DNA of 64,000 bases, from positions 66,712,001 through 66,776,000 of the forward strand of contig OZ024746.1 in the NCBI GenBank assembly GCA_964016885.1. The letters run 5' to 3'. Below, piece after piece: positions 1,913-63,530 of the stretch; the stretch's first letter is position 1; the number at the start of each line of letters is the position of its first letter. The notes under the pieces were generated by a model. It saw only the letters and a program-made list of their open reading frames with translations, did not search any database and was not told where the DNA came from. The DNA comes from Eledone cirrhosa (Eukaryota). The translations under genes and the position numbers were made by a program.

Positions 1913-2299
1913 TTATACAAATGTATGTTTTATCTTCGCAAATAAGACTTTGAACTACAATATCTTGAAAACCATTTCCTATGATGTCTGTGTGGTGCTG
2001 TTTTTCTGCATCAATATTTCATGATTCAACTCGAAATGGTCTAACGTAGTTCTTAACAATGTCGTTTTCATTGTAGATTCTTCAGTTAAGTTGAAAAGAT
2101 TTTATGCGACTGTCTGTTCCTATTAACATACTGTTTAAGCAAACCGTTTCGAGATTGCCATTACTCCGGCTATGAAAGCGTTCCTCTTGCTATAATGACG
2201 AAAATGATAAATATTTTAAAAATAATATTAATAATAATTATCTTTATTTGCAATGGCTTCTTCATAATAATAATTGTTATTCTTATTCCATTAATAATA

Positions 2300-2483
2300 A
2301 TAATGGTTTCTGATTTAGGTGGAGGGAAAGTCGATTAATCGACCTCCAGTGCATTTTTGGTACTTTATTTCATCGATACCGTAATGAAGAAGGGCAAAGC
2401 TAACCTCGGCAGGATTTTAACTCAGATCGTAAAGGGGCGTAACACTATGCCATAAAGCATGTTGTCCGACGTTCTACCATACT
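2300..2483 (-). mobile_element. tRNA-derived SINE (family S, Meta-domain-like), diverged copy
   Basis: Reverse complement matches the copy at 2541-2738 (GAGTTxAAATC B-box, CTTT..CATxxT..GGxxTCGATxAAATAAAGTACC core); flanked by AAT repeats. Confidence 0.8.
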
Positions 2484-2540
2484 GAATAATAACAATAGTA
2501 ATTGTTGTTGTTATAATAATAATAATAATTATTATTATTA

Positions 2541-2738
2541 GGTGGATTGGCAGTATCGGTAGAGGGTGGGACGCCATGCTTTGACGCATAGAGTTACGGC
2601 CCTTGCCATTCTGAGTTCAAATTCCACCGAGGTTAACTTCACCATTCATCCTTATGGGGTCGATAAAATAAAGTACGAGTAATGTACTGGTGAATTGCTG
2701 GCCTTGTGCCAAAAGTAGAAACAATTATTATTATTATT
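2541..2738 (+). mobile_element. tRNA-derived SINE (family S) with (ATT)n tail
   Basis: A-box-like TGGCAGTATCGG, B-box GAGTTCAAATTCC, core CATCCTTATGGGGTCGATAAAATAAAGTAC resembling the MetaSINE domain, 3' GGCCTTGTGCCAAAAGTAGAAAC followed by (ATT)n; at least 8 copies in the window. Confidence 0.85.
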
Positions 2739-5700
2739 GTTCTTTGAGTCTCAGTCATGGATATTATTTAACTGGAATATCAAGTTGCTACCTGCAGCTT
2801 CAGATATTCAGGACGTATGGGAGGGTTCTTGCTGTTCCCAGCAAGCATGCCTTTTGAAGTTTTCAAAAAGCGGGGCTGGACTAATCTTCTTTAACCATCC
2901 TTGGAAACTTTTTGAGATAGTACCTAGTTCGCATATGACAATCGGGACGATCTTGATTTCATGGCAGTTCCAAATCCTTTTTAACTCCGACTTTAAGTCC
3001 TGGTATCGGTTAATTTTCTCCCTCTCATTTTCTTGCAATCTCGTGTCAAATGGGCAGGCTACATCTACAATCAGGCACGATCTTTTTTCCTCGTCCAAAA
3101 CCACCAGGTCAGGCCTATTGTGTTCTAATTTCTTGTCCGCCTGTATCCTAAAAACCCATAGCACCTTCACCTGATCGTTTTCTATCACCGACTTCGGCTT
3201 ATGCTCATACCACTTCTCAGAATGTGGTAAATTGTTTACTTTGCATAGATCCTAGTGGATCACCCTGCCCATCACATCATGTCTTTATAGTGAGTCTGGG
3301 CTAGGTGTTTACACTCGGATACAATGTGAGATCCTACACGGTGAGCTAGCCTCCTCCTTGTCAATATGGTGTTTCACCCATTTCGTTCTGAGGGCTTGCT
3401 CTTGCGCAGCCATTGGCATTCCTTCTCTGGATTTTTTAAGGTCTCCATTTTTATCCAGTTCCATGTCTGTGGATCTCTAAATTCAGTTTTTCTAAAGAAG
3501 GTACTGTTAAGGGGTTTTTCAAGAAGTCTGCTCTTCCTCCATGTTGTTAGTTCCTCCTTGGACATCCCCTGGTCTATTGTCTTCTCCTTCAGTACAATTT
3601 TGAGCATTGGCTCCCTACTGTCAGACATATATTTGCAGGTTGTTTTTCTCCATCTGAACACAGTACTCTATGCTGATAAGATCTCTTCCACCTTCAGATC
3701 TCTTTAAGTAGAATCTATCGACATCACTCCTCTTGTGGAACATGTTGTAGATAGTCAATAGCTTCCTAGTCTTCCTATCCATTTCTTTTTGTTCAGCAAC
3801 ATTCCATTTCAGAATTTCCGCACTGTCCCTAATAATAGACAGAGCTCGGCAATTCTCTGCACTTATGACATTCCTACTATTTAGATGTGATTTTAATACA
3901 CTCCTTACTCTCCTTATGTACTCAGATTTTATCGATTCCTTCATTTTTTTTTGTTCTTGATGTCATCTGCTTCCAGAACACCTAAATATTTGTATACCTC
4001 TTCAGTGTCAATTTTCTTTATCATCTCACATGTTGGTACCTGGATTCCGTTGCTTCTGCTCAATTTCCCCCACTTCATCACTAGGACTCCACACTTATTA
4101 ATACCAAATTCCATACATATATCATTGCTGAAAATACGGACAGTATCAACAAGTACATCAAACTCCTTATCATTTTTCCCAAAGAGCTAAAGATCGTCCA
4201 TGAAGTTGAGGTGGTTTTCCCAACTTGTATCCTGCTCTCACTTTTCGCAATATAACGGTTAAGGGTATCAGGGCAAGGACAAACAGCGGAGGGGTACACA
4301 CTATCTCCCTGGAAGATACCTCTCTTGATCATCACGCATCCCAATGATTCTTGACCCGATGTTAACTCTGTTTCCCAGGACTTCATACTTTTGCTCCACA
4401 ACTGTCTGATGTTATCTGCCACCTTGAACATCTCTAGGCTTTTGGTTATCCAAGAATGAGGTACCATGTCGAATGCCTTTTTGTAATCTATCCATCCCAT
4501 GGCAAGACCAGTGTGCCTCCTCTTGCAATTCTTCATTACCATCTTATCAATAAGTAACAGGTCTTTTGTACCACGGGACTTCTTTCGGCATCCTTTCTGT
4601 TCGTTCGGTAACAAGTTGTTTATGTGGAGGTGATGGTAGATTTCCTCAGACACAATGCTTGTTAACAGTTTCCACATTACGGACAGACATGTGATAGGCC
4701 TATAGTTGGTAACATCATTACCCTTTATTCGGTCTTTCATTACCAGAACTGTGGTAACTTCACCCGACATCAAGCAGTCATTGAACATGGTTGTCAGTTT
4801 CGGGTGGAGGGATGTTACATTTTTAATCCAATACCCTTGCACACCACGTGGGCCTGCTGATTTCCAGTTGGTTAGTTTTTTGGCCTGCCCTTCAAGAGTT
4901 TCAACTGTGATACTCAAATCAGGTTGTTGGTGTGCTTTTTCACTAATCCCCTTCTGACTATTATGTTCAATATCATGCTCCCATATTCCTCTCCAGAATG
5001 TCTTAGTCTGTTCCGCCTCAGGGATCACGTCGTTGCCTCTTTCTTTCCTTTCAAGGTGTCCAAAAAACATCTTCTGGTTGTAGTCAAACATGCGGTTCCG
5101 TTTATAATGAGTGACTCTGTTCTCAAACCGTCTAATATTTGCAGTTTTTTGCTACAATGCGTTGCTTCAGTTCCTCTATGATAATATTTAGCTTTTTCCC
5201 CATATTATTGTATTTTATTTCAAATCTATCTTTAGTGTCTATGTTTTGTAATGTCCCATTCAGTAAGGACTCAAGTTTTCCAATGTCTTTTCTCATTTCC
5301 TTGATTTGACCATTCAGTCGTTTCTTCCACCAAGGTTCTGATCTTTCTTGTTTGTTGTTTCCTCTAGTTTTTATGCCGCATTTGCGGTTGCTTTGAGGAT
5401 ATTGTTGCATTGGTGAAGGTTCCTCGCCTCAAGGTATGGGATGACTTTGTTTACCTTAGCTCTTGTTTGTTTTAACTTTTTCCTGTCTACAAATCTTAGG
5501 TTCATAGGTTTTCCACTATCATTGTTAATTTCATCTACCACTAAATTCAGGATATCAACCAAATCTTGTCTTAAACCGTCAGCATTCATTTCCTCAATGG
5601 CCGTATATTTGTTCCAGATGTTATTTATTTCAGCATTCAGATCATTGTCTGCTTCGGATGTTTCCTCAGCTCTCTCAACCTATTCACCTTCATTTCCCAC

Positions 5701-6296
5701 TGGCTCGTTTGCCTGACACACTCCACTCTCTATTTCCAACTTAATCTCTCTGCTCAGTTCCTCCAGTTCCAACTCGCTTATCCATCCATTAGTTCTTATT
5801 ACCCAAGCCTACCCGACCAATTTTTGTTCAGCTAATTGAAATAGACCAATCGCGTTCCAGATGTTATGCATCCGTTTCCTATAGCCTTTTTCCATGGGGT
5901 TACTCTTCTGGAAACATTTCATGACAGTTCTATTCAATTATTTCGTCCAGTTGGTTCTTGACCCTTTCCTTCTTCCTCCAACACCAGCAGTATTTGGATG
6001 ACACCCAGGTCCCTGCTGCTGGGCCAGGGTACACTTGCTGGGGGAGAGTCTTTCACATGACGTCCCAGTCTCCTTTCCACCGTTATTCTAACTGTTTAGG
6101 TTCGACATTTAAACACTCATATCGAGGATTGGTGAATGTATGGTTACATAAACACCGGTCATTTCATCACCCCCGGTGGTTTTAGCGTGGCACCATCACG
6201 CTGTAGACGAACATAAATAAATAAACGAACATAAATCAATAAAAACATAAAAAAATAAACATTAGTTTCATCGTAATGTTTGAATGTCTGACTTGG

Positions 6297-6298
<2 letters not shown>
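2739..6298 (-). mobile_element. R4/Dong-clade non-LTR retrotransposon (RT + restriction-like endonuclease), near full-length, degenerate
   Basis: N-terminal WT..N..VM.C...GYRKRM..IW motif (~5860-5950); RT motifs YRPITCL, EQKGCRKKSRGTKD, WIDYKKAFDMVPH, GIFQGDS, FMDDL (~4190-4205); HIVSEC zinc-knuckle remnant; RLE motif RPDLVVLD..IVDVACP..EK..RY.DL; both ends abut (TAA)n. Confidence 0.9.
2790..6120 (-). pseudogene. Fragmented single ORF of the R4/Dong element (RT-RLE)
   Basis: ORF pieces 5371-5589, 5132-5410, 4081-5091, 3621-3944, 3374-3661 and 2808-3188 are collinear parts of one protein broken by frameshifts and stops. Confidence 0.88.

Positions 6299-6330
<32 letters not shown>
6299..6330. 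repeat. (ATT)n microsatellite separating the Dong and Tx1 5' ends
   Basis: TTA repeats directly visible. Confidence 0.95.
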
Positions 6331-6544
6331 GAATGCCATGGTTGACGGAGGCTCGGCTCTGTAAGGTATAGTAATTTTTAACGTTATAACAATTGTAAAT
6401 TGTTTAAAACTTGAACCAAATTGTAGATAAAGACACCCTCCTCGTCGTGAGGGTATCTCTGCCCGTTATTTGGTCCTTCGCGGTTAAATAACCAGTTTTT
6501 GGGGTTCTGTACCCAATATTCATTTTAAACAGTAAAAAAATAAC

Positions 6545-8720
6545 ATGGCTACTAAAGAGAATTTTCACAAGTCACTCCCACTCCTTCCGTCTTCTTCTTC
6601 CTCAATCGTCATTACGTCAGAGAAAAGATTCTCTCTCTCCTTCCATTCTCTAAATGAGGTGTCGCCTCTGTCGCCTCTTTCGCAAGCGACGCCATTAAAG
6701 AAAAAGAAAAATGTAGTTTCTCGTAGCGTTCTTCATCAAGAGAAGCGCGTACCGTGGAACATTTCTCCATGACAACGACAACAACGAAAGATGTGTGCGG
6801 TAAATACGGAAAGCCATTTCATTCGTCTCACGTCATGAAGAATAGCAGCAGCAACCGTTATTACAGCAGCAGCAGCAACAGTGGCGAGGAGAATACTAGT
6901 AGCAGACGCAACAACATCAGCATAAGCATAAACAACAACAGCAGCAGCAGCAGCAACAGCAACAACAACAGCAGCAGCAGCAACAACAACAACAACCACA
7001 GCAACAGCGGCGGCAACGGTCGTAGTACCAGCAGCAACAACAAAATTAACAGCAGCTCTGACGACAACAACAACAATATCAAGAAAGTAAACCAATCTCG
7101 TTTGCAGGTATCGCAAAGAACCTGGAAACCATCCTTATAACAAATGAGTAATTACAGGAAGCAAAGAAGATGGTGACGAAAACCAGACACCGAGCAATCT
7201 GCAAGGCAGCCGAAGAATTTTTCGAAACCCAACAGCACTGTACGGTCACGTACCGTACAGTAAGCACAAAATCACGTAGGGTTGAAAGAGCCACTGAGGC
7301 TCAAATACAAATAGCCTTAGCGTCTGTGTGGCAGCGGAAAACGCATATCACTCGAGGCAAGTAATATGCCACCGTGGATGTGCTTTTTGTCACACACCAG
7401 GAGGCAAAGGCTCAATCCTTAGTGACCCTAAGGAGCGAGAAAGTGGTTTTGGTGCCCTCCTACTGCGCGCAACAAATTGAGAAGGTCAAACTGACCCCCC
7501 CCCCCCTCCGGGATGGCCCTTCTTGGCTGGCCGCGCCTGTTCTCGTCGGAATCGAGGACAAAACAACGGTACTGCAAGTGCAGAAAAAAGTACGAGAAGA
7601 TTGGGTCGGCGCCTCCATTGAGATGTTAATTCAAACCAACCAGGAGTGCATCGAAACTATCTCGGATGTGATAGACTTCGATAACGGCACTCAACTTCCC
7701 ATAAGTGTTGAGGGCAAATGCCCGAAATGCTTTCGCTGTGCGTCGAAGACTAACCTCAGGGCCTTCTGCAATTGGAAGACCCTGAGAAAGGAGAAAACGC
7801 CCCAACTTCCGAAACCGGCTCCACTGCTACCAGCGAGAGGAGAGGCGGCAAGCACGAGGGATAGGTCCGTAGCACCCATACCCACGCCACGGAAATCAAG
7901 AACAGCAGCAGCAGCAGCAGTGGAAGTATTAACAACAATAACAGTAATACCAACTGCAGCTGCAACAGAGACTCCACTGCAACCATCACCAACAAAAACA
8001 AGTGAAATAGTGGAGCTGGTACCCCTCCACGACCTCACAGAATCGGACATGGAGTGTGAGGTTGGTGAGGGATGGCAAAAGGTCGCAAGAAGGCACAAAC
8101 GCAGAAAACAGCGCATCGTCGCCTTCGAAAAGGGAAGAAAGAAATGAAAAAAGGGTAAAGGCTACTGCAAAGAGACTCACAGCAGCAACACCACCAACAC
8201 CATCAACACCCACACTATCACCACCATCACCACCGGCGGCAACCCCACCGCCAACAACAACAACACCTTCAACAACACCACCACAAGCAGCAACATCGCA
8301 AACACAACAACAAAACACACACACCCAGCAACAACTACAAGAAAATAGCAGAACCACACCCCACCCCCAAAAAAGAAATGCACAGTAATAAATACACACA
8401 ACAAGAAACTAATGACTTACATAATTGAACACACAGACATTTCACAGCACGAATACATAATACCAGCACCAATCAAAACACCAACGAACATAAGACTGGT
8501 AAGAATAGCACAGAAACAATACACAAACATTAAAACGAAATTCCCCAACGCAGTTGGTGATTTCAGAGACATAGGACGGACATTCAACCGGAGAGTATAT
8601 TCGGATATACCCACAGAAGAGCCGACGACCAGCCGAAGGGACGATTCAACGGTCCCATCACCACACGATCAAGTGAAAAGGGATGGAGAAACTTTCCTTC
8701 CTCTACGAGAAGTAAGGTAA
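6545..8720 (+). pseudogene. ORF1 (gag-like, CCHC knuckle) of Tx1-A copy 1, disrupted
   Basis: Fragments 6545-6772, 6754-7140, 7170-7364, 7374-8147, 8056-8388 and 8412-8720 align to ORF1 of copy 2; knuckle is CFRCASKTNLRAFC (His lost). Confidence 0.85.
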
Positions 8721-8754
8721 GTGGTATTTCCCATCTTTTCCACTCCATTTCAAC

Positions 8755-9038
8755 ATGACTTCACTCAGAATAGGCAGCATAAATGCGCGTGGCTTGGTGT
8801 CGTCATGGAAGCAGGGCCACCTGCTCAACGACCTCAGGTCACTAAACGTAGATGTAGTGGCCATCAGCGAAACCAGAATCTCCGAAGCACGGGCCTTCGC
8901 ACCGATCTTCGGCGGGTACGACGTGTACGCATGTCCCAGCCGTCCTGGATCGGGGGGAGGATTTGCTGTGCTTTTTCGGAGAGGTTTGGATCTCGCCATA
9001 CGGGCCATCTTCCTGAACCCAGAAGGTAAGTTGATGGT
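8755..9038 (+). pseudogene. Truncated ORF2 N-terminus (AP endonuclease) of Tx1-A copy 1
   Basis: SINARGL, VAISET and GGG.AVLF APE motifs; nearly identical to 16850-17133. Confidence 0.88.
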
Positions 9039-9256
9039 CAGGGTAACCGTGGCTTTTTTTAATGGGCTTTCTCCACGAATGTCCCTCGGAAGCCTCCCCC
9101 CTATTGTATCTTTTTTTATTACAACCTCTGTTTTTGTTTTCTTTTACACGCAGAAATGGCCATTTGTACCGTCCTGTATTGTCCTGTATTGACCTGTACT
9201 GTCCTTAATGTCTTACTTTGTGTAAACCCTTGTGGTTTATAATTATTATTATTATT

Positions 9257-9455
9257 ATTGGCAGTATCGGTAAGGGTCGGACGCCATGCTTTGAAGCATA
9301 GAGTTACCTCCCTTTATGATCTGAGTTCAAATCCCGCCGAAGTTAACTTTGCCTTTCATCATTACGGGGTCGATAAAATAAAGTACCAGTAATGCACTGG
9401 GATAATTGCTGGCCTTGTGCCAAAAGTAGAAACAATTATTATTATTATTATTATT
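9257..9455 (+). mobile_element. SINE family S in (ATT)n between two Tx1 elements
   Basis: Matches 2548-2738; (ATT)n on both sides. Confidence 0.88.
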
Positions 9456-9661
9456 GGTCTAAGCGGACGAGTTTTGCTCGCTCACAGTAAGTCGCTTTAT
9501 TTGCCTGTTAAAATTATTTGTTGTTAAATATTTCTTGTTGTGTAAGGGATATAAGCCCTTAGCCTTTGCCCCGTGAAGGGGAAAATATAATATTTGGGCC
9601 TTTTAGCCCAAATAGTTAAACTTTTTTTTACATGTTAACAAATTTACGAAGAAAAAAATAC

Positions 9662-11590
9662 ATGGCTGAGCCACGCCCCCCAACGATATGTCGGCTCTCG
9701 TGCGACAACGACGTAGAATTAATAGGAGCGCTACAGCGAAATTAACACACATTGATAACACAAACACGGTAAACAAAGACACCAATTATACCAATAAGAA
9801 CACTAATTTTGAAAAAAAATGACAGTAACAGCGACAACAAAAATACAGATAACAAAAAAAAATAAAACAAATACAACAATATCAACACCACTAACATGAA
9901 AACAAATAGCGACAACACCAACAGCAACAATACCAGCTGCACCGAGAACAACGGTGGCAACAAAGACAACAATGATAACAATGACAGTGCTAACAACAAC
10001 ACCAACAAGAACAACAACAACAAAACTCCCAACGAAAACAAGAAGAACACTTTCACTGCGGCAGCCACAAAAAAGAGGCCATGCTTCAACATGGACCTCT
10101 CAAACAAAGATGAAAAGTTTGCCCAGACAAGGAAGCTCATCAAGCAAGAGCAAACTTAACTGTCCCGGTAGAAGCTATTGAGACAGTGGAGCGCAAAACG
10201 GTGCATTATAGATGCATCTCAGCACAAACCAAAAGGGCAGCGTTAATCCCACAAGAAGATATCGATGTCGCGCTGAGGTGCATCAGAGAACACACCAAGT
10301 ACATAGAGAGCGGCAGACAGTACGGCACCATTTCGGTGTTGTTCAAGTCAGAAGCCCTCGCGATGAAACACGCCATGCCTCCTTGCAAAACCAGCAAGGT
10401 TATAATGTACCCCTCCCACATGGGAAAAAGAACAGCCCGTCTCCGCATTCCCAGAATCCCACCAGGACTTGACATGTGGTGGCTTCTGGGATGTGTGATT
10501 GTGGAGGGGACGGATGCAGTCCCTATAGAAGTGACCAGAACGGCCAGAGAGGACTGGTCCGGGGTTGACCTGGAGATCCTTCTCCAGATCAGGCCCGAGT
10601 ATGTGAAGACAATCCCAGACCATATCCGACTTCAGAATGGGACTGTCATTCACATTATAACCGAAGGCAAAAGGCCGCAGTGTTTGATTTGTAGGGAAAA
10701 AACCCATTTGCGAGCCTTCTGCCCTCAACTGTTGAAAGGGGCAAGGGGTCGAAAGGCTCCACTGCTGCCGACGCCGGGGCGAGGACCACAACCAACACCT
10801 GCACCGGCAAAACCAACAACAACAACACCAATAGAAAAACTACCACCACCATTGACCACCCAGGGGGGAAACGAAGAAAGCTGTCAAATTCCCCCTCCCC
10901 CCAAGAATACACACACCAATACAACCTTAAACATACATACAAACACACTTACAGACACAGACCCCTCATCTACCAGTAGTTAAGATGAGGGAAATCCAAA
11001 ATCCCCCAAAATACAAAAAAGGAAACACAAAAAGAAAAAAAAAACTCAACAAAGCACAAAAGCACCCACAATAAAAAAACGCAGACACCTTCCACGCAAC
11101 CATCTCTCCAATAACACCAACATCAACACCACCATCACCATCACCAGAATCCCCCAACCGCAAACAACCGAAACAGACGCAAGAACAAATATACACACAA
11201 ACATCTGAAACCACAGACACCGCACTCACAACAAACACAGATACAACAGAAACAACGCCACCAAAACCATCACCACCACAGCCACGCAAACAAATAAAAT
11301 CACACCAACAAAACATACAAAACTTCGTACTCGTCAGGAGGGCCAACAAGGAACTGATGGCCCTCGTAGCACGAAGTGAAAATATACAAAAAGAGGGGGA
11401 AATGTTTAAAAGATTTGGTTCTGGTGCGAATGTCGCTCGACATATTCAAAGAAATACGAGACAGCTTTCCTCGGGACATAGGAACCCCAAACGTAAAACC
11501 CACTTGAAGACTTTTAAAGGGGTTCCCAAAAGAAACCCCACTAACTATGGAGGTCGAACAACCCGACCTTCACAAGAGTCCGGAAGGTAA
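9662..11590 (+). pseudogene. ORF1 of Tx1-B, disrupted
   Basis: ATG at 9662 in ACATGGCT context like family A; pieces 9896-10159, 10186-10983 and 11357-11590; CX2CX4HX4C knuckle. Confidence 0.8.
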
Positions 11591-11625
11591 GTAAACCTTC
11601 CTCTCTCTCTGTTTAACCTGCCAAC

Positions 11626-14206
11626 ATGGCCGTATTAAGAGTAGGGTGTTTAAATGTTCGAGGCCTGGGATCGTCCTGGAAGCAGGGTCACCTGCTCAAC
11701 GACCTCAGGTCTATAAAAATGGATGTAATTGCAGTCAGCGAGACCAGGATTTCTGACACGCGCGCACTAGCCCCCATTTTCGACGACTATCAGATCTTTG
11801 CATCTGTTAGCCAGCCGGGAATGGGAGGCGGGCTGGCAGTGCTGTTTAGGAAAGGCCTGGATCTCGAGGTAAGGTCGATCTTCCGGGACCCGGACGGGAA
11901 GTTGGTGGTCCTGGACGTGAACAATAATGAAGGCAGTGCCTTTAGACTGGTGGCCGTCTATGCTCCTACTGGGACAGGACGGCCGGACTTCTTTAGACGC
12001 CTGGAAGCCTTTCTGGGTACGTCTTGACCTTTACTGTTAGCGGGGGACTGCAACGGCATCTTAGACGCACGCTGGGACTGTGTGAGAGTATCCGATAGGA
12101 GCGGGGGGTGCAAAAGCCTCAAGAACCTGATCAGCCATTTCCAACTGTCTGACAGGTACCGACTAGATTTCCCTAATGCGCCAGTGTGGACCTAAATATG
12201 CCAGAATTGTTCTCCAATCTCCTCGAAGCGCTCTACTGCAACTGGCAGCAAAACGGGAGTATTCCCAGTTCTGTGAGCCGGGGCGTAGTGACGCTGATAA
12301 GGAAAGACGAGAACAAGAGGGACATATTAGACAATTTCAGGCCCATAACTCTGCTCAACACAGAGTTTAAGATTTTGGCCAGGTTGTTAGCGAAGAGGTT
12401 GGCGCTTGTCGTCGGGGATTTGGTTGGGGAGACGCAAACTTGCGCAATCCCAACCAGGTCCATACACGACAACCTCCACCTAATGCGATACATCATAGAG
12501 AGGGTAGGTGTAAACCTGGGTTCGGTGGGGCTCTGATCAATTTAGAACAATCGAAAGCATTCGATAGGGTCGACCATCGGTACCTGGAGGCTGTCCTCAA
12601 GGCGGCTGGCTTCAGCCCCGTCTTCAGAAGCTGGATCGCTGCAATGCACAGCGGCACCTGCTCGATCGTCAAAATTAATGGCCACCTCTCGGAGCCGTTT
12701 CAGGTCTCCCGATCGGTCCGTCAAGGGAGCCCTCTCTCCTCCCTTCTGTACGTATTGACTCTCGAGCCTTTACTGCGGAAGCTGGAGCTGTTGCAGGGCA
12801 TCCCGCTCGAACCGGGACGCAGAAAGGCTGTGTCGGTTTATGCGGACGACATCGCCGTGATGGTGTCGGACACCTCAGAAATCGAGGTGGTCGGCAACTT
12901 ATTGGAGGAATATGAAAGGTTGACGGGAGCAAAACTTAACCGAGAAAAGTCAGTGGGCTTGCAACTCGGCACCTGGAGAGGCAAGTCCATGCCGTCCAAC
13001 AGCGTCGTTAGGCGCTGGACGGACGGACCGGTAAAGTTGCTAGGGGTTTGGTTCGGGCCAGACCTCCAGGTGGATAAGATTTGGGACGAGGTGACGGGCA
13101 GGGTAGTCTGTCTCACCCAGAAATGGGCGGGGATGAAGCTATCACTGAAAGGTCGGGCGGAGGTGGCGAACGCGTACATCGCGTCCGTCATCTACTACCG
13201 TCTGACTGTCGTCCCTTGCCCCCGTTCGCGGCTCGCCATCTTGGAGCGGCTCCTCTTCAAATTCTTGTGGAGGAGTCAAGTTCCGCTGGTGAGGCGGTCC
13301 ATCTGCTGCCAGCACCCTCTACGTGGAGGGCTGGGCATGCCGTGGCTAATGATGCGCAGGCACGCGCTGAGGCTGCGGCATCTCCAGATATTCTGCCTAA
13401 ACGGTGAACAGGTGTGGTCGCAGTTTGTCAGACGGGCCTCTCCGCAGCTCGTTTATTTGACTGAGTTGCAGTCCTGGGTCAAGAAGAGACCGAGACTGGG
13501 TGACTGGCATCTGGAATGTTGCCAGGCCCTCACTGCCCTCTACCAGGCGGGCAATGCAGTCAGTGGAACTTCCACTCTCGAGTTCTATAGAGGATTAGTG
13601 GTGGGCACGTGCGACGAGGCACTCGGAGAGCCTCTGGGAGTCAACGAAGTCGAACTAACCAGTCTGTACCGGAGGACTTTCGAGCCGGGGACGATGGATA
13701 ATTTCCAAAAATCCCTCGCTTGGCAGTGCTACCGGGGGACACTGCCGGTTCGAGATAAACTCTACAGGCACGGAAGTGCTGTCAGACGGACCTGCCCGAG
13801 ATGCGCGCAGAGTGACGAAACCGTTCTGCACGCACTCGTCCAGTGTCCGTGCATTACTGACTTGTGGCGTTATGTTGAACAGCTGTTGTCGCGTGTAGAA
13901 CGGATCCGGCTATCGGGCGAGTCCATAGTGAAGATCGACCCACCGCCTTCTTTTGGCCAGGAAGGGCAAGCAATTTTCCTCTGTCTGGTGGCAGTAGCGA
14001 AAGAGGTTGTATGGTGGACGAGGTTGATAGGACTGAAGACAGACACTTTTCTCTTCGGCCAATCCCTCATCAATTTTTCAAGTTTCACTTGGAAAGGAAG
14101 GTGAGGGTGGAGAGAGAAGTGCTGCCCCAGTAAATTTGCTGAAGGGTGCGTGAATGTGGCGAGAATGGCCCGTGTGAGTAGGCCTACTCTGGTCATGCGG
14201 CTGTAG
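11626..14206 (+). pseudogene. ORF2 (APE-RT-zinc finger) of Tx1-B, disrupted
   Basis: Pieces 11626-12027, 12186-12536 and 12440-14104 are homologous to ORF2 of copy A2; stop at 12025, deletion at ~12191, frameshifts. Confidence 0.88.
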
Positions 14207-14482
14207 GTAGGTAAATGTGAAGAGGAGAGGGGTGCCCTTCCAGGGTTCGCTCGAAGCGTCGGGTCGTTCAGGACTGGTTGGGTACCTGAGCGAACCCTAG
14301 GTGGTCATCTCCCTCTATTGGGGAATATTTTCTTGTAATTTTCTTGTTACTTTATTGTGACCTTGTTATTGTTACTTTGTTATTGTTATTTATATTGTTT
14401 ACTCGATTTTTCTGTAAAACCCCACTGTCTCAGTCTTTTGTATTGTCCCCTATATGTCGGCCATTGTGGCCAATAAATGAAA

Positions 14483-14517
<35 letters not shown>

Positions 14518-14731
14518 GAATACCATGGTTGACGGAGGCTCGGCTCTGTAAGGTATAGTAATTTTTAACCGTTAAAACAATTGTAAATTGTTTAAAACTT
14601 GAACCAAATTGTTGATAAAGACACCCTCCTCCTCGTGAGAGGGGTCTTTCTGTCCGTCATTTGGCCCTTCGGGGCTAAATAACCAGTTATTGGGGTTTTG
14701 TACCCAATATTCATTTTAAACAAAAAACAAC

Positions 14732-16814
14732 ATGGCTACGAAAAAGAAATTTCATACGTCACTCCCACTCATTCCGTCTTCTTCTTCGTCAATCATCACT
14801 ACAGCAGAGAGAAGATTGTCTCTCTCCCTCCCTTCTTTAAATGTGTCTCTCTCCCTCCCTTCTCTTTCGCAAGTGACGAAAGAAAAGAAAAGTCTCGTGC
14901 AAAGCGTGCAAAGTTTCTCCACGACGACGACGACAGCGACGAAACAGGTGTGCGGGAAATACGAAAACCCAGTTCATTCGTCTGACGTCAGGAATAATAG
15001 CAGTAGCAGCCGTAATAACAACAGCAACAGTGACAATGAAAACAACAGTAGCAGCCGCAACAGCATCACCAGCAGCATAAACAACAACAGCATTAGCAGC
15101 AGCAACACCAACAACAACCACAGCAACAGCGGCGGAGGCAGTAGTCGTAGTACCTGCAGCAACAACAAAAGTACCAGCAGCTCTGACGACAACAACAACA
15201 GCAGAGAAAAACCAATCTCATTTGCAGGTATTGCGAAAAACTTGGAAACAATCCTCATAACAAATGAGGAATTAGAGGAAGCGAAGAAGATGGTTACAAA
15301 AAACGGACACCGAGCAATCTGCAAGGCAGCGGAAAAATTTTTCGAAACCCAAGAGCACTGTACGGTCACGTACCGTACAGTAAGTACAAAATCCCGTAGG
15401 GTGGAAAGAGCCACAGAGGCCCAAATACAAAAAGCCTTGGGGTCTGTGTGGCAGCGGAAAACGCACATCACCCGAGGCAAAAAATATGCCACCGTAGACG
15501 TACTTTTTGCCACACCCCAGGAGGCAAAGGCCCAATCAGTAGTGACCCTAAGGAGCGAGGAAATGGTGTTGGTGCCCTCCTACTGTGGGCAAAAAATTGT
15601 GAGGGTCAAACTAACCCACGTCCCCCCCCCCCGGAATGACCCCTTCTTGGCTGGCCGCGTCTGTCCTCGTCGGAATCGAGGACAAAACAACTGTACTGCA
15701 AGTACAGAAAAAAGTACGAGAAGATTGGGTCGGCTCCTCCATTGAGATGCTAATCCAAACCAACCAGGAGTGCATCGAAGCTATCCCGGATGTGATAGAC
15801 TTCGATAACGGCACTCAACTGCCCATAAGTGTTGAGGGCAAACGCCCGAAATGCTTTCGCTGTGGATCGAAGACTCACCTCAGGGCCTTCTGCAACGAGA
15901 AGACCCTGAGAAAGGAGAAAACCCCCCTCCTTCCGAATCCGGCTCCACGGCTACCAGCAACAGGACAAGCGGCAACCAGGAACGATAGGTCCGTGGCACC
16001 CATACCCACTCCACGGAAATCAAAAACAGCAGCAGCAGTGGAAATATTAACAACAACAACAGCAATACCAAATGCAGCTGCAACAGAGACTCCAGTGCAA
16101 ACATCACCAACAACAAGTGAAAGAGTGGAGCTGGTACCCCTCCCCGACCTCACAGAATCAGACATGGAGTGTGAGGTGGGAGAGGGATGGCAAAAGGTCG
16201 TAAGAAGACACAAACGCAGAAGCAGCGCATCGTCGCCTTTGAAAAGGGAGGAAAGAAATGAGAAAAGGGTAAAGTCTACTGCAAAGAGACCCACAGCAGC
16301 AACAACACCAACACCATCACCACCCACACCAGCACCACCATCACCACCGCCAACAACACCTTTAACACCACCACCACAAGCACCAACATCGCAAACACAA
16401 CAACAAAACACACACACCCAGCAACAACGACAAGAAAATAGTAGAACCACACCCCACCCCCAGAAAAACAAATGCACGGCAATAAATACACACAACAAGA
16501 AACTAATGACTTACATAATTGAACACACAGACATTTCCCAACAGGACTACATAATACCAGCACCAATCAAAACGCCAACTAACATAAGACTGCTAAAAAT
16601 AGCACAGAAACAATACACAAACATTAAAACGAAATTCCCCAACGCAGTTGGTGATTTCAGGGACCTAGGAGGAACCATCAATCGAAGAGTATACTCAGAC
16701 ATTCTCTTAGAAGAGCCGACGACCAGCCGAAGGGACGATTCAACGGTCCCTTCACCAGACGATCAAGTGAAAAGGGATGTAAAAACCATCCCTCCTCTAC
16801 CAAAAGTACGGTAA
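14732..16814 (+). pseudogene. ORF1 gag-like protein (Asn/Ser-rich N-terminus, CFRCGSKTHLRAFC CCHC knuckle, Pro/Thr-rich tail); one frameshift in a C11 tract
   Basis: ORFs 14732-15745 and 15636-16814 join if one C is removed from the run at 15622-15632. Confidence 0.87.
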
Positions 16815-16849
16815 GTGGTCTTTCCCATCTTTTCCACTCTATTTTAAAC

Positions 16850-19800
16850 ATGACCTCACTCAGAATAGGCAGCATAAATGCGCGTGGCTTGGGGTCGTCA
16901 TGGAAGCAGGGTCACCTGCTCAACGACCTCAGGTCACTAAACATAGATGTAGTGGCCATCAGCGAGACCAGAATCTCCGAAGCACGGGCCTTCGCACCGA
17001 TCTTCGGCGGCTACGATGTGTACGCATCTCCCAGCCGTCCTGGATCCGGTGGAGGAGTTGCTGTGCTTTTTCGGAGAGGTTTGGATCTCGCCATACGGGC
17101 CATCTTCCTGGACCCAGAGGGTAAGCTGGTGGTGCTGGACGTGACCAGCGGAGACGGGCAAGCTTTCAGGCTAGTGGCCGTCTATGCCCCGACAGGAGCA
17201 GGGCGGCCTGATTTCTTCCGGCGTCTGGAGAACTTTCTTGGAACGTCCCGCTCTTTAGTGTTAGTGGGCGACTGGAACGGGATCTTAGATGCACGCTGGG
17301 ACTGTGTAGGATTAGCGGATAGGGGTGGAGGGTGCAAGAGCCTCACCAACCTGCTCAGGCGTTTTGAACTGTCTGACAGGTACCGATTGGATTTCCCGAA
17401 TGTGCCAATGTGGACTTGGACAAACCGCATAGGGTCATCCAGATCATATCTAGATAGAGTATTTTGTAGGGAAATAGATAGGTCTAGCATAGGCTGTCCA
17501 CAATTCAAGATAGTCAGCTACACGGACCACAAATTCGTGACCTGTGTGCTTGACTTAGATAGGCTTCATAGACGAGGACCCGGCTACTGGAAGCTAAACG
17601 CGTCCTTACCAGCGCGCAAGGCCTACAGAGACCGGATTAGCGAACTAGTTAAGCGGGCGTTGACGGGGGCCATCGTCAACAACAAGTGGTGGTTTGCTCT
17701 GAAAAGAGCGATTAGAATAGAATCGATTAGGTTTAGTAAGGCTTTAGCAATAGAGAAAAATAGAGCAGAGGGAGAACTAGTTAGAAAATTAGACGAGGCG
17801 CTTAGCAAAGGCATTGCGACCGACGTGCTTGCGGCAAAATTGGCCCTTGACCAATTCTTCAATGCAAAGCACGAAGGCTGCGTTGTCAGAGCTAGGGTGC
17901 GTGCTCTCAGACACGAGGGGACGAAAGCCGTTCAATGGGCCCGAGTGGCGGAGGCGCGTCGTGGCAACAAAGCCACGATCCGGTCTTTGGTGGACCACGA
18001 CGGGCGCATGCTACTCGATCCCGGGCAAATGTGTGAAGCTTTTCAGCGACACTTCGCTCAGCTGTTCGGGGGAAGCGGGGGGCCGGGTAGAGGGATGGAC
18101 TTTAGTGTCTACCTCGACGGACTGCCGCGGCTCTCGGCCACTGAGGCGAAGTGTTGCGAAAAGCCGATAACAGCCGCTGAAGTACGGGAGGCAATGACTG
18201 GCTGCACAAGGGGTAAATCGCCTGGTTTGGATGGTCTGCCCTATGAACTTTACGTACAGATGCCAGACTTGTTCGGAGGCCTCTTGGCGGACGTCTACTG
18301 CAACTGGCAACAGAACGGGAGAATTCCCAGTTCTGTGAGCCGAGGAGCGGTGGGACTGCTGAGAAAGGATCCGAACAAGGGGGATAACATAGACAATTTC
18401 CGGCCCATAACTCTGCTAAACACATAGTTTAAGATTTTGGCCAAGGTGCTAGCAAAGAGGTTGGCGCTTGTCGTTGGTGGTCTGGTGGGAGAGGCGCAGA
18501 CATGCGCCATTCCCGACAGATCCATCCACGACAACCTCCACCTCATGCGATACATCGTAGAGAGGGTAGCTAGGGAACCTGGCACGGGTGGGTCCTTGAT
18601 CAATTTAGATCAGTCGAAAGCTTTCGATAGGGTCGACCATCGTTACCTAGCGGCAGTCCTGAGGGCGGCAGGCTTTGGGCCCGTCTTCAGAGGCTGGATC
18701 GCTGCCATGCACAGCGACATCTGCTCTGTGGTGAGAGTGAACGGTCACCTGTCGGAACCGTTCAACATCATGCGCTCGGTCCGCCAAGGATGTCCCCTCT
18801 CGTCCCTCTTGTACGTATTGACTCTCGAGCCATTATTGCACAAACTGGAGACGTTGAGGGGAGTCCCGCGCGAACTAGGATGCGGAAGATCCGTGTCAGC
18901 ATATGCGGACGATGTCACCGTAGTGGTGTCGAACGCCAAACACATCGAGGCGATCGGCACTACACTAAGAGAATACGAAGCGTTGACAGGAGCAATGATC
19001 AACCAGGAAAAGTCAGTGGGCCTGCAGCTCGGCACCTGGAGAGGCAGGTCCATGCCGTCCAACAGCGTCGTCGGGCGCTGGACGGACGGACCGGTTAAAT
19101 TGCTAGGGGTCTGGTTCGGTCCGGACCTCCAGACGGACAAAAACTGGGACGAGGTGACGAGCAGGGTGGCTTCTCTCACCCAGAAATGGGCGGAGAGGAA
19201 GCTATCCCTGAAAGGTCGAGCGGAGGTGGCTAACGCGTACATCGCGTCTGTCATCTGCTACCGCCTAACCGTCGTACCTTGTCCTAAGCCTCGCCTGACT
19301 GCGCTGGAGCGTTTGCTCTTTCGCTTTTTGTGGAAGGGACGTGCTCCGATGGTCAGGCGGTCCATCTGTTGTCAACACCCGCTACGTGGAGGGCTGGGCA
19401 TGCCGTGGCTGATGATGCGCAGGCACGCGCTCAGGCTACGACATCTCCACCTCTTCCTCGACGGTGATCAGGTGTGGTCGCCGTTTGCTAGACGCGTTTT
19501 TCCCCAGCTCGTTTCCTTGACGGAGCTGCAGTCCTGGGTCAAGCGAAGACCGAGAGGGAGCGCCTGGAGACTGGAATGTCTTCAGGCGCTCACAGCCCTC
19601 GACCAATCGGGCAATGTGATCGGTGGAAACTCCACCTCGGCGTTCTATAGAGGATTAGTGGAGGGGAAGAGCGACGACGTACTTGGTGAAACTCTAGGCG
19701 TCGACGAAAATCAACTAGCCAATCTCTTCGGAAGAACTTTCGGGCCAGGGCCTATGGACAACTTCCAGAAATCTCTGGCCTGGCAGTGCTACCGAGGAGC

Positions 19801-20269
19801 CTTGCCAGTTCGGGATAAACTCTACAGGCATGGAGGTGCCGTCAGCCGGGCATGTCCGAGATGCGCGCAGGGCGACGAAACCGTCCTGCACGCACTCGTC
19901 CAGTGTCCGAAAATTGCTGACTTGTGGATTTATGTCGAACACCTGCTGTCGCGTTTAGGACGGATCCAGCTATCATCTGAGTCTATCGTGAGGATTGCCC
20001 CGCCCTCCTCCTTTAGCCGGGAAGGGCAGGCAGTTTTTATCTGTCTGGTGGCCATGGCGAAAGAGATAGTATGGTGGACACGTTTGAAAGGGCTGAAGAC
20101 GAGCACTTACCTCTTCGGTGATGCTCTGATTGACTTTTTCAAATTTCATTTGAAAAGGAAAATCAGAGTAGAGAAGGAAGTGCTCTCTTCCCAGCATTTT
20201 GTTGAAAGATGGGTGAGAGAAGCAAGAATGGCCCGAGTGAATGGGCCGACTCTGAGTATATATCTGTAA
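16850..20269 (+). pseudogene. ORF2 APE endonuclease-reverse transcriptase-zinc finger, single in-frame stop
   Basis: ORFs 16850-18427 and 18437-20269 are in the same frame; TAG at 18425-18427 corresponds to GAG (Glu) in family B; motifs GDWN, LDRVF, TDH, PGYWKLN, KSPGLDG, DQSKAFDRV, QGCPLS, YADD, CPRC...H...C. Confidence 0.92.
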
Positions 20270-21386
20270 ACTAAAGGTGGAAAACTGGGAGAGGGCACTT
20301 GCCTTGGTGGTCAGGGTCATTGTGGCTTTTTACTGGGCTTTCTCCACAAATGTCCCTCCGAAGTCTCCCCCCTATTGGGGAATTTTTCATTGTTATTTTC
20401 ATTGTTATTTTTGTTACATCCTCTGTTTTTGTTTTTTTACACGCAGAAATGCCCATTTGTACCGTCCTGCATTGTCCTGCACTGTCCTTAATGTCTACTT
20501 TATGTAAACCCTTGTGGTTAATAAAGAAATCATTATTATTATTATTATTATTATTAGTAGTAGTAGTAGTAGTAGTAGTATGCAGCGGAAAAACGAATAT
20601 GGTGACGATGGCGATAATAAAAGCAAGTAGAAAAAATTAAGTAGGCAAAAAGTAAAGAGAAAAATAAATAAAAAAAGAAACAAACAATTAAAGAGAAATA
20701 ACCTATAGAACGTAGGAAGAAAAAATATAATAAAGCGACGTAGAACCAATTATAGCTGTAAAAATATTTGGTAAGCACGTTGAAGTAGGAACAGGAACAT
20801 ACAGGCACTTCAGAGTCCTAGAAGATAAAAGGTTTGTATGAAAAACTTAATAACCCATGCTGTTTTGAAGTCCAATGTATTAAAAACAAAGTCTCTATCG
20901 GTCAAACATGACAGGCCAGACAGAACTGAGGATTTAAAGAAAACATGTTTTAAACGATATATTTATTTATGTTTATACATAAAACGTTAACCACCGCACT
21001 AGATGACAGATGCTTTAATTGGAGGTGGGAGTTAATTTCTAACAATATTATTGACAGGTGATACACTAAAGTTTCTTTTTTGTCATTTATGTTTCCTCAT
21101 TATACTGACACTAAGGGGTAAGTTTTTAAAGAAAGATTGTATTCAACTCAAATGATTTAGATAATTAATGGCAACTATTTTATTACCTAAGTACAGAGGG
21201 AAAAATGGGCATTTATCTTTTTTTTAAATCGCCATTGACACAAGGGAAATAAAATAGTGTAATGATGTTAGTTCGTGCTCTATTACTACAGTCACTTCCT
21301 CTGTTTAGGAATATGGTAGCAGCCACTGAATTTACGTCAAATCATTACATTCTATCTGTTTAGAGTTTTCATTTCATTATATATAT

Positions 21387-26912: not shown

Positions 26913-27298
26913 GTGTATGTGTATGCATATATACGACATAGTCGAATCTGACCTAGAACCATACAAATGATAATGGAAAACTCTCATGGAACAACCTAAA
27001 TCCATAGTCAGTACTAAGACTATAGTCACACCTGGCATGAAAAAATACTACCGCCATCAAAATTAATAATATATTTCCTATAGTTAACAACAGTACATCG
27101 TACTTATCATGTATAACTATTCCACTATTTGTCTCCCACGGATGTCCAAGATATTTCCGTCTCCCTTCATATTAATCGTTTTTTTATAAAACAAATTAAA
27201 GTACCTTAATTTACTACGTCGATATCATTAAACATATCAGCTGAAAGAAATCTCATTATCCGTGATACCAACGTAAACATAATCATAATTAATATAGT

Positions 27299-27451
27299 TG
27301 ATAATAACAACTATATTAATTATTGTTTCTACTGTTGGCACAAGGCCAGCAATTACCCAGTGCATTACAAATAGAGTACCAGTAATGCACTGTGAAATTG
27401 CTGGCCTTGTGCCAAAAGTAGAAACAATAATTAATATAGTTGTTACTATCA
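27299..27451. repeat. Short palindrome made from the SINE S 3' end plus flank
   Basis: GTTTCTACTGTTGGCACAAGGCCAGCAATT mirrors AATTGCTGGCCTTGTGCCAAAAGTAGAAAC; mirror extends into non-SINE flank. Confidence 0.85.
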
Positions 27452-29024: not shown

Positions 29025-29152
29025 TGTTTCTACTTTTGGCACAAGGACAGCAATTGCCCCAATTCATTTCTGGTGCTTTATTTTATCGACCCCGTAAGGA
29101 TGAAAGGTAAAGTTAACTTCAGCGGGATTTGAACTCAGAACGTAAAAGGCCA
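29025..29152 (-). mobile_element. SINE family S, 5'-truncated, 16-bp TSD
   Basis: TSD TAGTGGTAGTAATAAT at 29009-29024 and 29153-29168. Confidence 0.88.
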
Positions 29153-47309: not shown

Positions 47310-47360
47310 ATGATGATGAATGATGATGATGATAATAATAACAATAATAATAATAATAAT

Positions 47361-47398
<38 letters not shown>

Positions 47399-62429: not shown

Positions 62430-62588
62430 GCGGTGGATTGGCAGTATCGGTAGAGGGTCGGACGCCATGCTTTCCAGAATAGTTACGTCCCTTTACGATC
62501 TGAGTTGAAATCCCACCGAGGTTGACTTTGCCTTTCATCCTTATGGGGTCGATAAAATAAAGTACCACTAAAGTAAAAACAATTATTA
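62430..62588 (+). mobile_element. SINE family S (3' internal deletion), 10-bp TSD
   Basis: TSD ATTATTAAAA at 62417-62426 and 62582-62591. Confidence 0.85.
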
Positions 62589-63391: not shown

Positions 63392-63530
63392 ATAGTTACG
63401 TCCCTTTACGGTTTGAGTTCAAATCCCGTCGAGGTTAACTTTGCCTTTCATCCTTACGTGGTCGATAAAATAAAGTACCAGTAATGTACTGGGTAATTGC
63501 TGGCCTTGTGCCTAAAGTAGAAACAATTAT
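63392..63530 (+). mobile_element. SINE family S, 5'-truncated, 15-bp TSD
   Basis: TSD ATTATTTTACATATA at 63378-63392 and 63526-63540. Confidence 0.88.

Follow-up and report, generated by a model that had tools for sequence, protein, structure and literature searches.

Why do retroelements of four families stand end to end at one place in the genome of the octopod Eledone cirrhosa, with simple repeats between them? The locus lies in a 64,000-nucleotide stretch of contig OZ024746.1 (assembly GCA_964016885.1, positions 66,712,001 to 66,776,000, forward strand; hereafter the window), where seven elements occupy positions 2285-20580 (~18.3 kb): three short interspersed nuclear elements (SINEs), one long interspersed nuclear element (LINE) of Dong/R4 type, and three Tx1-like LINEs in the order A, B, A. 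A reading of the sequence alone (hereafter the sequence-only reading) had proposed that all of them are docked in one (ATT)n microsatellite, that the two Tx1 families are (ATT)n-specific, and that the array extends itself through its own ATT tails. The follow-up described here leads to a modified account, which we consider probable: a preference for a short ATTAT motif, combined with pairing between tail and target, gave rise to serial insertion of ATT-tailed elements into older tails.

Passages of PMC4494074 and PMC3812793 report Tx1 families with specificity for (TC)n, (TTC)n, (TTCC)n, and (TTTC)n, the former paper regarding a family as microsatellite-specific when the repeat flanks more than 20% of its genomic copies. 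Dong targets (TAA)n according to a passage of PMC7998251, and preference for an insertion site has been published as one way in which tandem elements arise (passages of PMC5932611; tandems also in PMC4640811). L1-Tx1 and Dong-R4 families have been counted in octopus, the relevant passages containing no target analysis (PMC13282606, PMC9115989, PMC8967140, PMC10294476). The recently active families in PMC13282606 include 13 of L1-Tx1, 13 of RTE, and 13 of CR1. Moreover, SINEs make up 11.6% of the Octopus vulgaris assembly, most of the recently active families being unclassified (PMC13282606).

Results

Seven retroelements share a compound simple-repeat tract

The sequence itself, comparison of the window with itself, and a listing of the junctions confirm the element order, strands, and junctions of the sequence-only reading (Table 1). 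The eight spacers sum to 219 bp of the 18.3 kb, and no unique DNA lies between the elements. ATT or AAT runs are present at all eight boundaries, pure at six and partly degenerate at the two leftmost. The entire window contains 11 runs of at least 4 ATT or AAT units, eight of which mark the boundaries of the array while three are scattered over the remaining 45.7 kb. The strand rule is strict, with ATT on the sense strand of the Tx1-like LINEs and SINEs and AAT on the sense strand of the Dong-type LINE. The array is real and non-random.

Six of the eight boundary runs adjoin a 3′ end and could be mere tails. The head-to-head junctions at 2485-2540 and 6299-6330 are the sole boundary runs not explicable as the tail of a neighbour. 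SINE1 sits in an (AAT)n block of opposite orientation, and the right edge of the array reads (ATT)8(AGT)8; the site is therefore a compound (AAT)n/(ATT)n/(AGT)n tract rather than a single microsatellite. Docking in ATT or AAT at every boundary thus stands, while the idea of one microsatellite was rejected because SINE1 and its block face the opposite way.

Rfam gave chance-level matches only along the array. The sole free-standing long (AAT)n tract outside the array, at 47343-47395, is free of insertions; ATT-rich DNA ~300 bp from it contains a SINE.

Table 1. Elements and spacers of the array, in window coordinates.
Feature	Positions	Strand
SINE1 ATT tail (AAT on the + strand)	2285..2303	-
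SINE1, diverged long-tail form without 3′ hairpin	2304..2484	-
Head-to-head spacer, degenerate AAT block passing into (ATT)4; no neighbouring tail can provide it	2485..2540	.
SINE2, near full length; predicted hairpin 2699-2711; likely seed of the array	2541..2723	+
(ATT)5 common to the SINE2 tail and the Dong-type tail (tail to tail)	2724..2738	+
Dong/R4-type LINE, full length, decayed; ORF ~6108 to 2803; AAT on the sense strand at both ends	2739..6298	-
T5 and (ATT)9, head-to-head junction of Dong-type LINE and Tx1-A#1; best single sign of target DNA	6299..6330	+
Tx1-A#1: decayed ORF1, first 95 codons of ORF2, 3′ UTR with predicted hairpin 9223-9239	6331..9240	+
(ATT)6 spacer	9241..9259	+
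SINE3, slightly 5′-truncated; predicted hairpin 9410-9422	9260..9434	+
(ATT)7 spacer	9435..9455	+
Tx1-B: ORF1 with CCHC knuckle; ORF2 11626-14203; predicted hairpin 14459-14471, then AATAAA	9456..14484	+
(ATT)11 spacer	14485..14517	+
Tx1-A#2: ORF1 ~14732-16814; ORF2 16850-20269; predicted hairpin 20507-20519, then AATAAA	14518..20531	+
(ATT)8 then (AGT)8, right edge of the array	20532..20580	+
ORF, open reading frame; UTR, untranslated region.

The SINE selects a short motif in ordinary DNA

Insertion sites outside the array show what this SINE requires. Short and dispersed, it shows target duplications and ends in a simple-repeat tail; ten segments of it lie in the window, seven of them outside the array, including the two segments of an inverted pair (27324-27426) that was left out of the target-duplication count. 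At all five analysable outside copies, the 3′ flank is matched upstream by a stretch starting with ATTAT, a motif with a background frequency of 0.0042 per position. Four of these are unique target duplications of 16, 10, 10, and 17 bp in non-microsatellite DNA, and the fifth is a 9-bp match in ATT-rich DNA. Consequently, this SINE requires a short motif, not a microsatellite.

Contig depth of the SINE is very high in sequencing run X1. Its head contains A- and B-box-like motifs, seen by eye against the consensus, with no match in ARAGORN or Rfam, and we take its core to resemble those of Deu and Nin. The 5′ truncation of SINE3 falls exactly at an ATT inside the SINE head (9257-9262), an indication of microhomology between element and target at this junction. 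At 27290-27450, two SINE 3′ fragments stand head to head between flanks that mirror each other; the other insertions have no such fold-back structure.

Tx1-like LINEs and the SINE end in a common predicted hairpin

The 3′ ends of Tx1-A, Tx1-B, and the SINE are all predicted to fold into a stem of four or more pairs that closes a five-base (C/A)TTGT loop; in Tx1-A#2, Tx1-B, and the SINE this hairpin lies 12-13 nt before the ATT tail. When scanned as at least 4 pairs with C-G closing and a (C/A)TNGT loop, the motif occurs nine times in the window, at three Tx1 and six SINE 3′ ends and nowhere else; among 20000 shuffled 40-mers it appears in 1-8. LINEs of a sister lineage, described below, end in the same hairpin followed by AATAAA (66 motif matches in overlapping stretches; 67 distinct ends). 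In an alignment of 12 ends, pairing at the four inner positions is kept in 46 of 48 cells, and three of these pairs vary on both sides; none of 500 shuffles reached the covariation score, which dropped for slid structures. Further, the match between the SINE and the last 80 nt of Tx1-B was equalled in 2-16 of 1000 shuffles, and that with three units of the sister lineage in 2-90. Because Tx1-A, Tx1-B, the SINE, and the sister lineage have this covarying 3′ hairpin in common, a Tx1-type LINE likely mobilises the SINE.

A long form of the SINE is represented by SINE1 and by 535 contigs with a loose end at 9401. It has a pyrimidine-rich stretch resembling that which immediately precedes the hairpin of the sister lineage, and probably continues into the hairpin. 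The Dong-type LINE was rejected as the partner of the SINE, since it contains no hairpin motif and 345-935 of 1000 shuffles match as well.

A sister lineage builds arrays without microsatellites

The closest full-length relatives with flanks (41-44% over ORF2) are found in animal-like DNA binned in one bacterial genome record, G001, which accounts for 86 matches (contigs C3-C15 and C17-C19; loci L081-L120, L123, L128, and L129-L164). These LINEs form head-to-tail arrays of ~6.4-6.9 kb units, mostly intact copies, which extend over several hundred kb of array DNA and reach up to 13 3′ ends per contig. No microsatellite occurs within 40 nt after any of the 67 3′ ends; array-repeated DNA follows 61, DNA seen once follows five, and one lies too close to the contig end. 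The copies in contigs C5, C9, and C17 are separated by a ~17-nt spacer similar to the beginning of the array's terminal flank, and C19 shares 12 nt. While spacers are array-specific, the units vary in their 5′ regions and include truncated copies, as fits repeated insertion at one site. Building arrays is thus habitual in the lineage, and the link to ATT is not ancient within it.

The G001 arrays may represent a LINE-built satellite. A common SINE was considered as a clue to their host and rejected, as it gave no match.

Decay falls mostly from left to right

SINE divergence from other copies in the window amounts to 38 of 170 columns for SINE1, partly reflecting a different subfamily, 18 of 171 for SINE2, and 9 of 170 for SINE3. 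Together with the break-up of the Dong-type LINE into seven pieces, the 9% distance of Tx1-A#1 from Tx1-A#2, the damage to Tx1-B, and the small distance of Tx1-A#2 from contigs of run X4, this divergence shows that decay mostly falls from left to right. Tx1-A#2 is the youngest element of the array and differs by 57 letters over ~5.8 kb from five contigs of run X4. Reads or contigs of four of 24 listed runs were compared over 9200-20640, of which the two raw-read runs gave 8 and 292 reads, nearly all less than 90% alike.

(ATT)4-A-G stands in front of SINE2, and (ATT)n-A-G closes the array. The empty site may therefore have comprised only ~4 ATT units, with the whole of 2739-20531 stacked in the SINE2 tail and target duplication. 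Growth of the array through its own ATT tails, as the earlier reading had it, fits both the lack of unique DNA between elements and the mostly left-to-right decay. Recent tandem duplication of Tx1-A was rejected on account of the 9% divergence and the differing breaks.

The A and B elements are Tx1-like LINEs

ORF2 of Tx1-A#2 comprises 1139 codons with one stop (codon 526, read as X) and carries an apurinic/apyrimidinic endonuclease (APE; PF03372; about residues 1-235), a reverse transcriptase (RT; PF00078), and a zf-RVT domain (PF13966), all above cut-off. Its best match in the PDB is human L1 ORF2, to which the catalytic positions align. ORF1 contains one frameshift and a CCHC knuckle, which takes the form CX2CX4HX4C in both Tx1-A#2 and Tx1-B. 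The four ORF1 pieces scanned bear no Pfam family, and BLASTP returned weak matches to ORF1 of U2-inserted relatives. We take an ORF1 with a gag-like CCHC knuckle, instead of the vertebrate L1 ORF1 domain, to be a mark of the Tx1 clade.

ORF2 of Tx1-B shows 72-74% amino-acid identity to Tx1-A and has suffered a ~0.84 kb deletion near 12193 (codons 190-468 gone) in addition to stops and frameshifts. Tx1-A#1, which is 90.6% identical to Tx1-A#2 where aligned, has lost ~3.2 kb of ORF2, with the break near 9038. Both older Tx1 copies have thus undergone large ORF2 losses with both ends kept, and the joined sides at the Tx1-A#1 break overlap by ~8 nt. In the 5′ UTR, both Tx1-A copies contain an AT-rich hairpin (6357-6420 and 14544-14608), whose Rfam match is at chance level.

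The closest named protein, from Argonauta hians, is 73% identical across the RT region, as befits an octopod host. For phylogeny, loci were collected with an alignment of 24 relatives, that is, with motifs of this lineage, and trees were computed by FastTree (126 rows) and IQ-TREE (59 of those rows). In place of named Tx1L, Kibi, Koshi, Keno, Dewa, Mutsu, or vertebrate L1 sequences, loci identified by their targets served as stand-ins. Rfam, applied to 50 of the 128 relative loci, placed U2 beside five, 5S beside four, and U1 beside two, and at locus L037 a Tx1-like element interrupts what by eye is a tRNA-like gene. The U2 and 5S targets are those of Keno and Mutsu.

The RTs of the window group with protein P0002 and the Argonauta protein (99/100), and this group is sister to a lineage of unnamed proteins and G001 loci (support 100). 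They fall inside a group of 54 of the 59 rows (Shimodaira–Hasegawa-like approximate likelihood ratio test 95) with U2-, 5S-, and U1-flanked elements, in a set of loci gathered with this lineage's motifs, and inside a 22-row group (97) that includes L037. Membership of the window LINEs in the Tx1 clade is likely. The Tx1-like identity assigned earlier is thus borne out by the APE, RT, and zf-RVT domains, the CCHC knuckle of ORF1, and the position of the RTs among target-identified relatives. As to an RT grouping with the Tx1 clade, the trees, whose rows include no named Tx1 or vertebrate L1, show the window RTs among elements that adjoin U2, 5S, or U1 genes or interrupt a tRNA-like gene.

The opposite-strand LINE is of Dong/R4 type

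The Dong-type LINE matches residues 16-1141 of protein P0208 in seven frame-shifted pieces and has a single ORF encoding an RT and a C-terminal PD-(D/E)xK-type nuclease. Its homologues are RT proteins of ~1130 amino acids with no PF03372 listed and with CCHC and PD..D..K motifs in their alignment; none of the 120 listed matches is a named Dong or R4. AAT runs of at least 15 bp were present in four of eight related loci examined (10 fetched), and the relatives L165 and L167 border long AAT runs. Single-ORF homologues, the C-terminal nuclease region, and AAT runs on the sense strand at both ends uphold the Dong/R4-type assignment.

Dong-R4 elements are known from octopus (passages of PMC13282606 and PMC9115989), and Dong of the R4 clade, as described in passages of PMC7998251 and PMC3812793, resembles the window copy in its single ORF, in the combination of RT and restriction-like nuclease, and in its (TAA)n target, here AAT at both ends. 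Apart from the decay of the window copy, there is no notable difference.

Discussion

Probable target choice by short motif and tail pairing

Target-primed reverse transcription is established, and the nicking and pairing steps of our model build on it. Judging from the anatomy of the array, the Tx1 endonuclease would nick at a short ATTAT-type site, and the (AUU)n end of the RNA would pair with the nicked strand, so that ATT runs and old tails would be preferred but not obligatory. Each insertion would leave a new ATT tail and a duplicated target, and old tails would in this way draw new copies. The Dong-type LINE would employ a nuclease of its own to enter this tract from the opposite strand. 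The Tx1 ORF2 protein would recognise the hairpin and thereby copy the SINE. SINE2 would have arrived first, in a run of ~4 ATT units, and the later elements would be stacked behind it.

Several points weigh against this model. Only three Tx1 5′ junctions are at hand, all from one locus, and no independent insertion site of Tx1-A or Tx1-B was obtained. The decay measures differ by element type and do not form one clock. Two copies in contig C9 of the sister lineage have the same truncation point, which suggests some tandem duplication as well. The hairpin motif was defined after these ends had been inspected; it is lacking in SINE1 and in the copy at 62430, broken in the copy at 29025, shortened in that at 63394, and found somewhere in 4 of 86 more distant loci. 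Moreover, the match of the SINE to the last 80 nt of Tx1-A#2 was equalled by 166-277 of 1000 shuffles, and the match is never significant as the best one along a whole LINE element. The true partner of the SINE may be another Tx1 family or another LINE.

The main competitor is strict (ATT)n specificity of Tx1-A and Tx1-B, conferred by a sequence-specific endonuclease as for Kibi on (TC)n and Koshi on (TTC)n. All three Tx1 5′ ends follow 7-11 pure ATT units, one of them without a neighbouring tail; microsatellite-specific Tx1 families have been published (passages of PMC4494074); and the nearest named outgroup, consisting of turtle and wrasse proteins, could belong on the Kibi/Koshi side. However, the sample is three junctions at a single locus, two of which adjoin the tail of another element, and we do not adopt the earlier claim of two (ATT)n-specific families that rested on them. 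The hairpin-sharing SINE occupies short ATTAT sites, four of five outside microsatellites, and the sister lineage stacks its copies with a microsatellite after 0 of 67 3′ ends. As indirect evidence, the use of ATTAT sites in ordinary DNA by this SINE and the sister arrays without microsatellites favour a short-motif preference. Strict microsatellite specificity is the less likely of the two and, in our estimate, unlikely.

Still less probable is that the lineage homes to the 3′ ends of earlier copies, at the hairpin/AATAAA region, with the ATT runs being mere tails that are not recognised. The head-to-tail arrays of G001, where 61 of 67 3′ ends run into array DNA and none into a microsatellite, speak for such homing, as do the C5, C9, and C17 spacers, whose sequence matches the beginning of the terminal flank. 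Within the window, a hairpin-bearing end precedes SINE3, Tx1-B, and Tx1-A#2 alike, and one would also precede Tx1-A#1 if the Dong-type LINE had come later. Yet the Dong-type LINE looks more decayed than Tx1-A#1, and outside the array the SINE occurs as solitary copies at ATTAT sites. Another possible reading of the G001 arrays is double insertion with subsequent unequal exchange, for which R1 provides a published case (passages of PMC5932611). Chance gathering, recombination between ATT runs, or mis-assembly at microsatellites, all without target preference, is highly improbable: large internal deletions in two LINE copies show that rearrangement has occurred here, and the four runs compared over 9200-20640 yielded no junction-spanning read or contig, but four families with intact ends, a fixed strand rule, no unique spacer, Tx1-A copies 9% apart and hence not recently duplicated, and arrays of related lineages in independent long contigs all stand against it.

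Relation to known systems and significance

Kibi on (TC)n, Koshi on (TTC)n, and the crocodilian Tx1 elements on (TTCC)n or (TTTC)n (passages of PMC4494074) resemble the Tx1-like LINEs of the window in having two ORFs, APE and RT domains, and a location in a simple repeat with a fixed strand. Here, in contrast, the repeat is ATT and the host an octopod, and strict specificity is no more than a possibility. The R1 arrays and the jockey and P dimers in passages of PMC5932611 are alike in that elements stand end to end with only target sequence between them, whereas the tract in the window houses four families, with elements on both strands, and the target would be restored by every tail. Since both tandem insertion and LINEs that seek microsatellites are already known, the array is a tidy example rather than a new principle. 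No report of an ATT-targeting Tx1 element was found in the literature passages covered, a scope that did not include Repbase, Dfam, Kojima and Fujiwara 2004, Ohshima and Okada 1994, or supplements, and Repbase, Dfam, or these older papers may hold the families already. If the model is correct, ATT would join the known Tx1 targets, and the phylum would be a new one for them.

Of the new leads, the most useful is that a high-copy SINE carries the Tx1-type hairpin. Stringent SINE/LINE pairs of the L2, CR1, RTE, and monocot L1 groups (passages of PMC3747384 and PMC4824008) are comparable in their common 3′ stem-loop with compensatory changes and the same terminal repeat, as is the crocodilian SINEU/Tx1-Mar pair (passages of PMC4494074). 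The present case differs from the stringent pairs in that the partner would be a mollusc Tx1-like LINE and that the primary-sequence match is short. According to passages of PMC3747384, only three SINEs with L1-clade tails are counted among more than 800 L1-clade LINEs. Tail pairs of SINEs and LINEs are also treated in PMC4824008, PMC4758252, and PMC5786205, and the passages of all four papers name no Tx1 partner for an octopus SINE. A Tx1 partner with the 13-nt hairpin would thus be a rare stringent SINE partner within the L1 group, would give a direct test of what drove SINE expansion in octopus, and would bear on why ATT tracts in octopus genomes fill with retroelements.

More tentatively, and short of calling it probable, we envisage an octopod Tx1 lineage whose RNA is recognised by its hairpin and whose tail has switched to (ATT)n. 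Such a lineage would renew ATT sites as it inserts and drive the high-copy SINE, with the sister lineage displaying the ancestral, microsatellite-free stacking.

Related loci in other sequence collections

Neither the Tx1-A 5′ end nor the SINE core was matched in pattern scans of metagenome, genome, and viral contigs, and no relative turned up when viral contigs were scanned at the protein level. The 80 loci from metagenomes are only distantly related (best segments 23-42%), and an ATT run is present in only one of them. U1 snRNA sequence adjoins Tx1-like elements in L121 (2104-2267 and 9029-9205) and L043 (9079-9233). The L121 element groups with U2-inserted relatives and may be a U1-targeting offshoot. 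Additionally, members of a well-supported Tx1-like group (L027, L028, L031, L033, L036, and L040) carry a GDSL esterase domain in ORF1.

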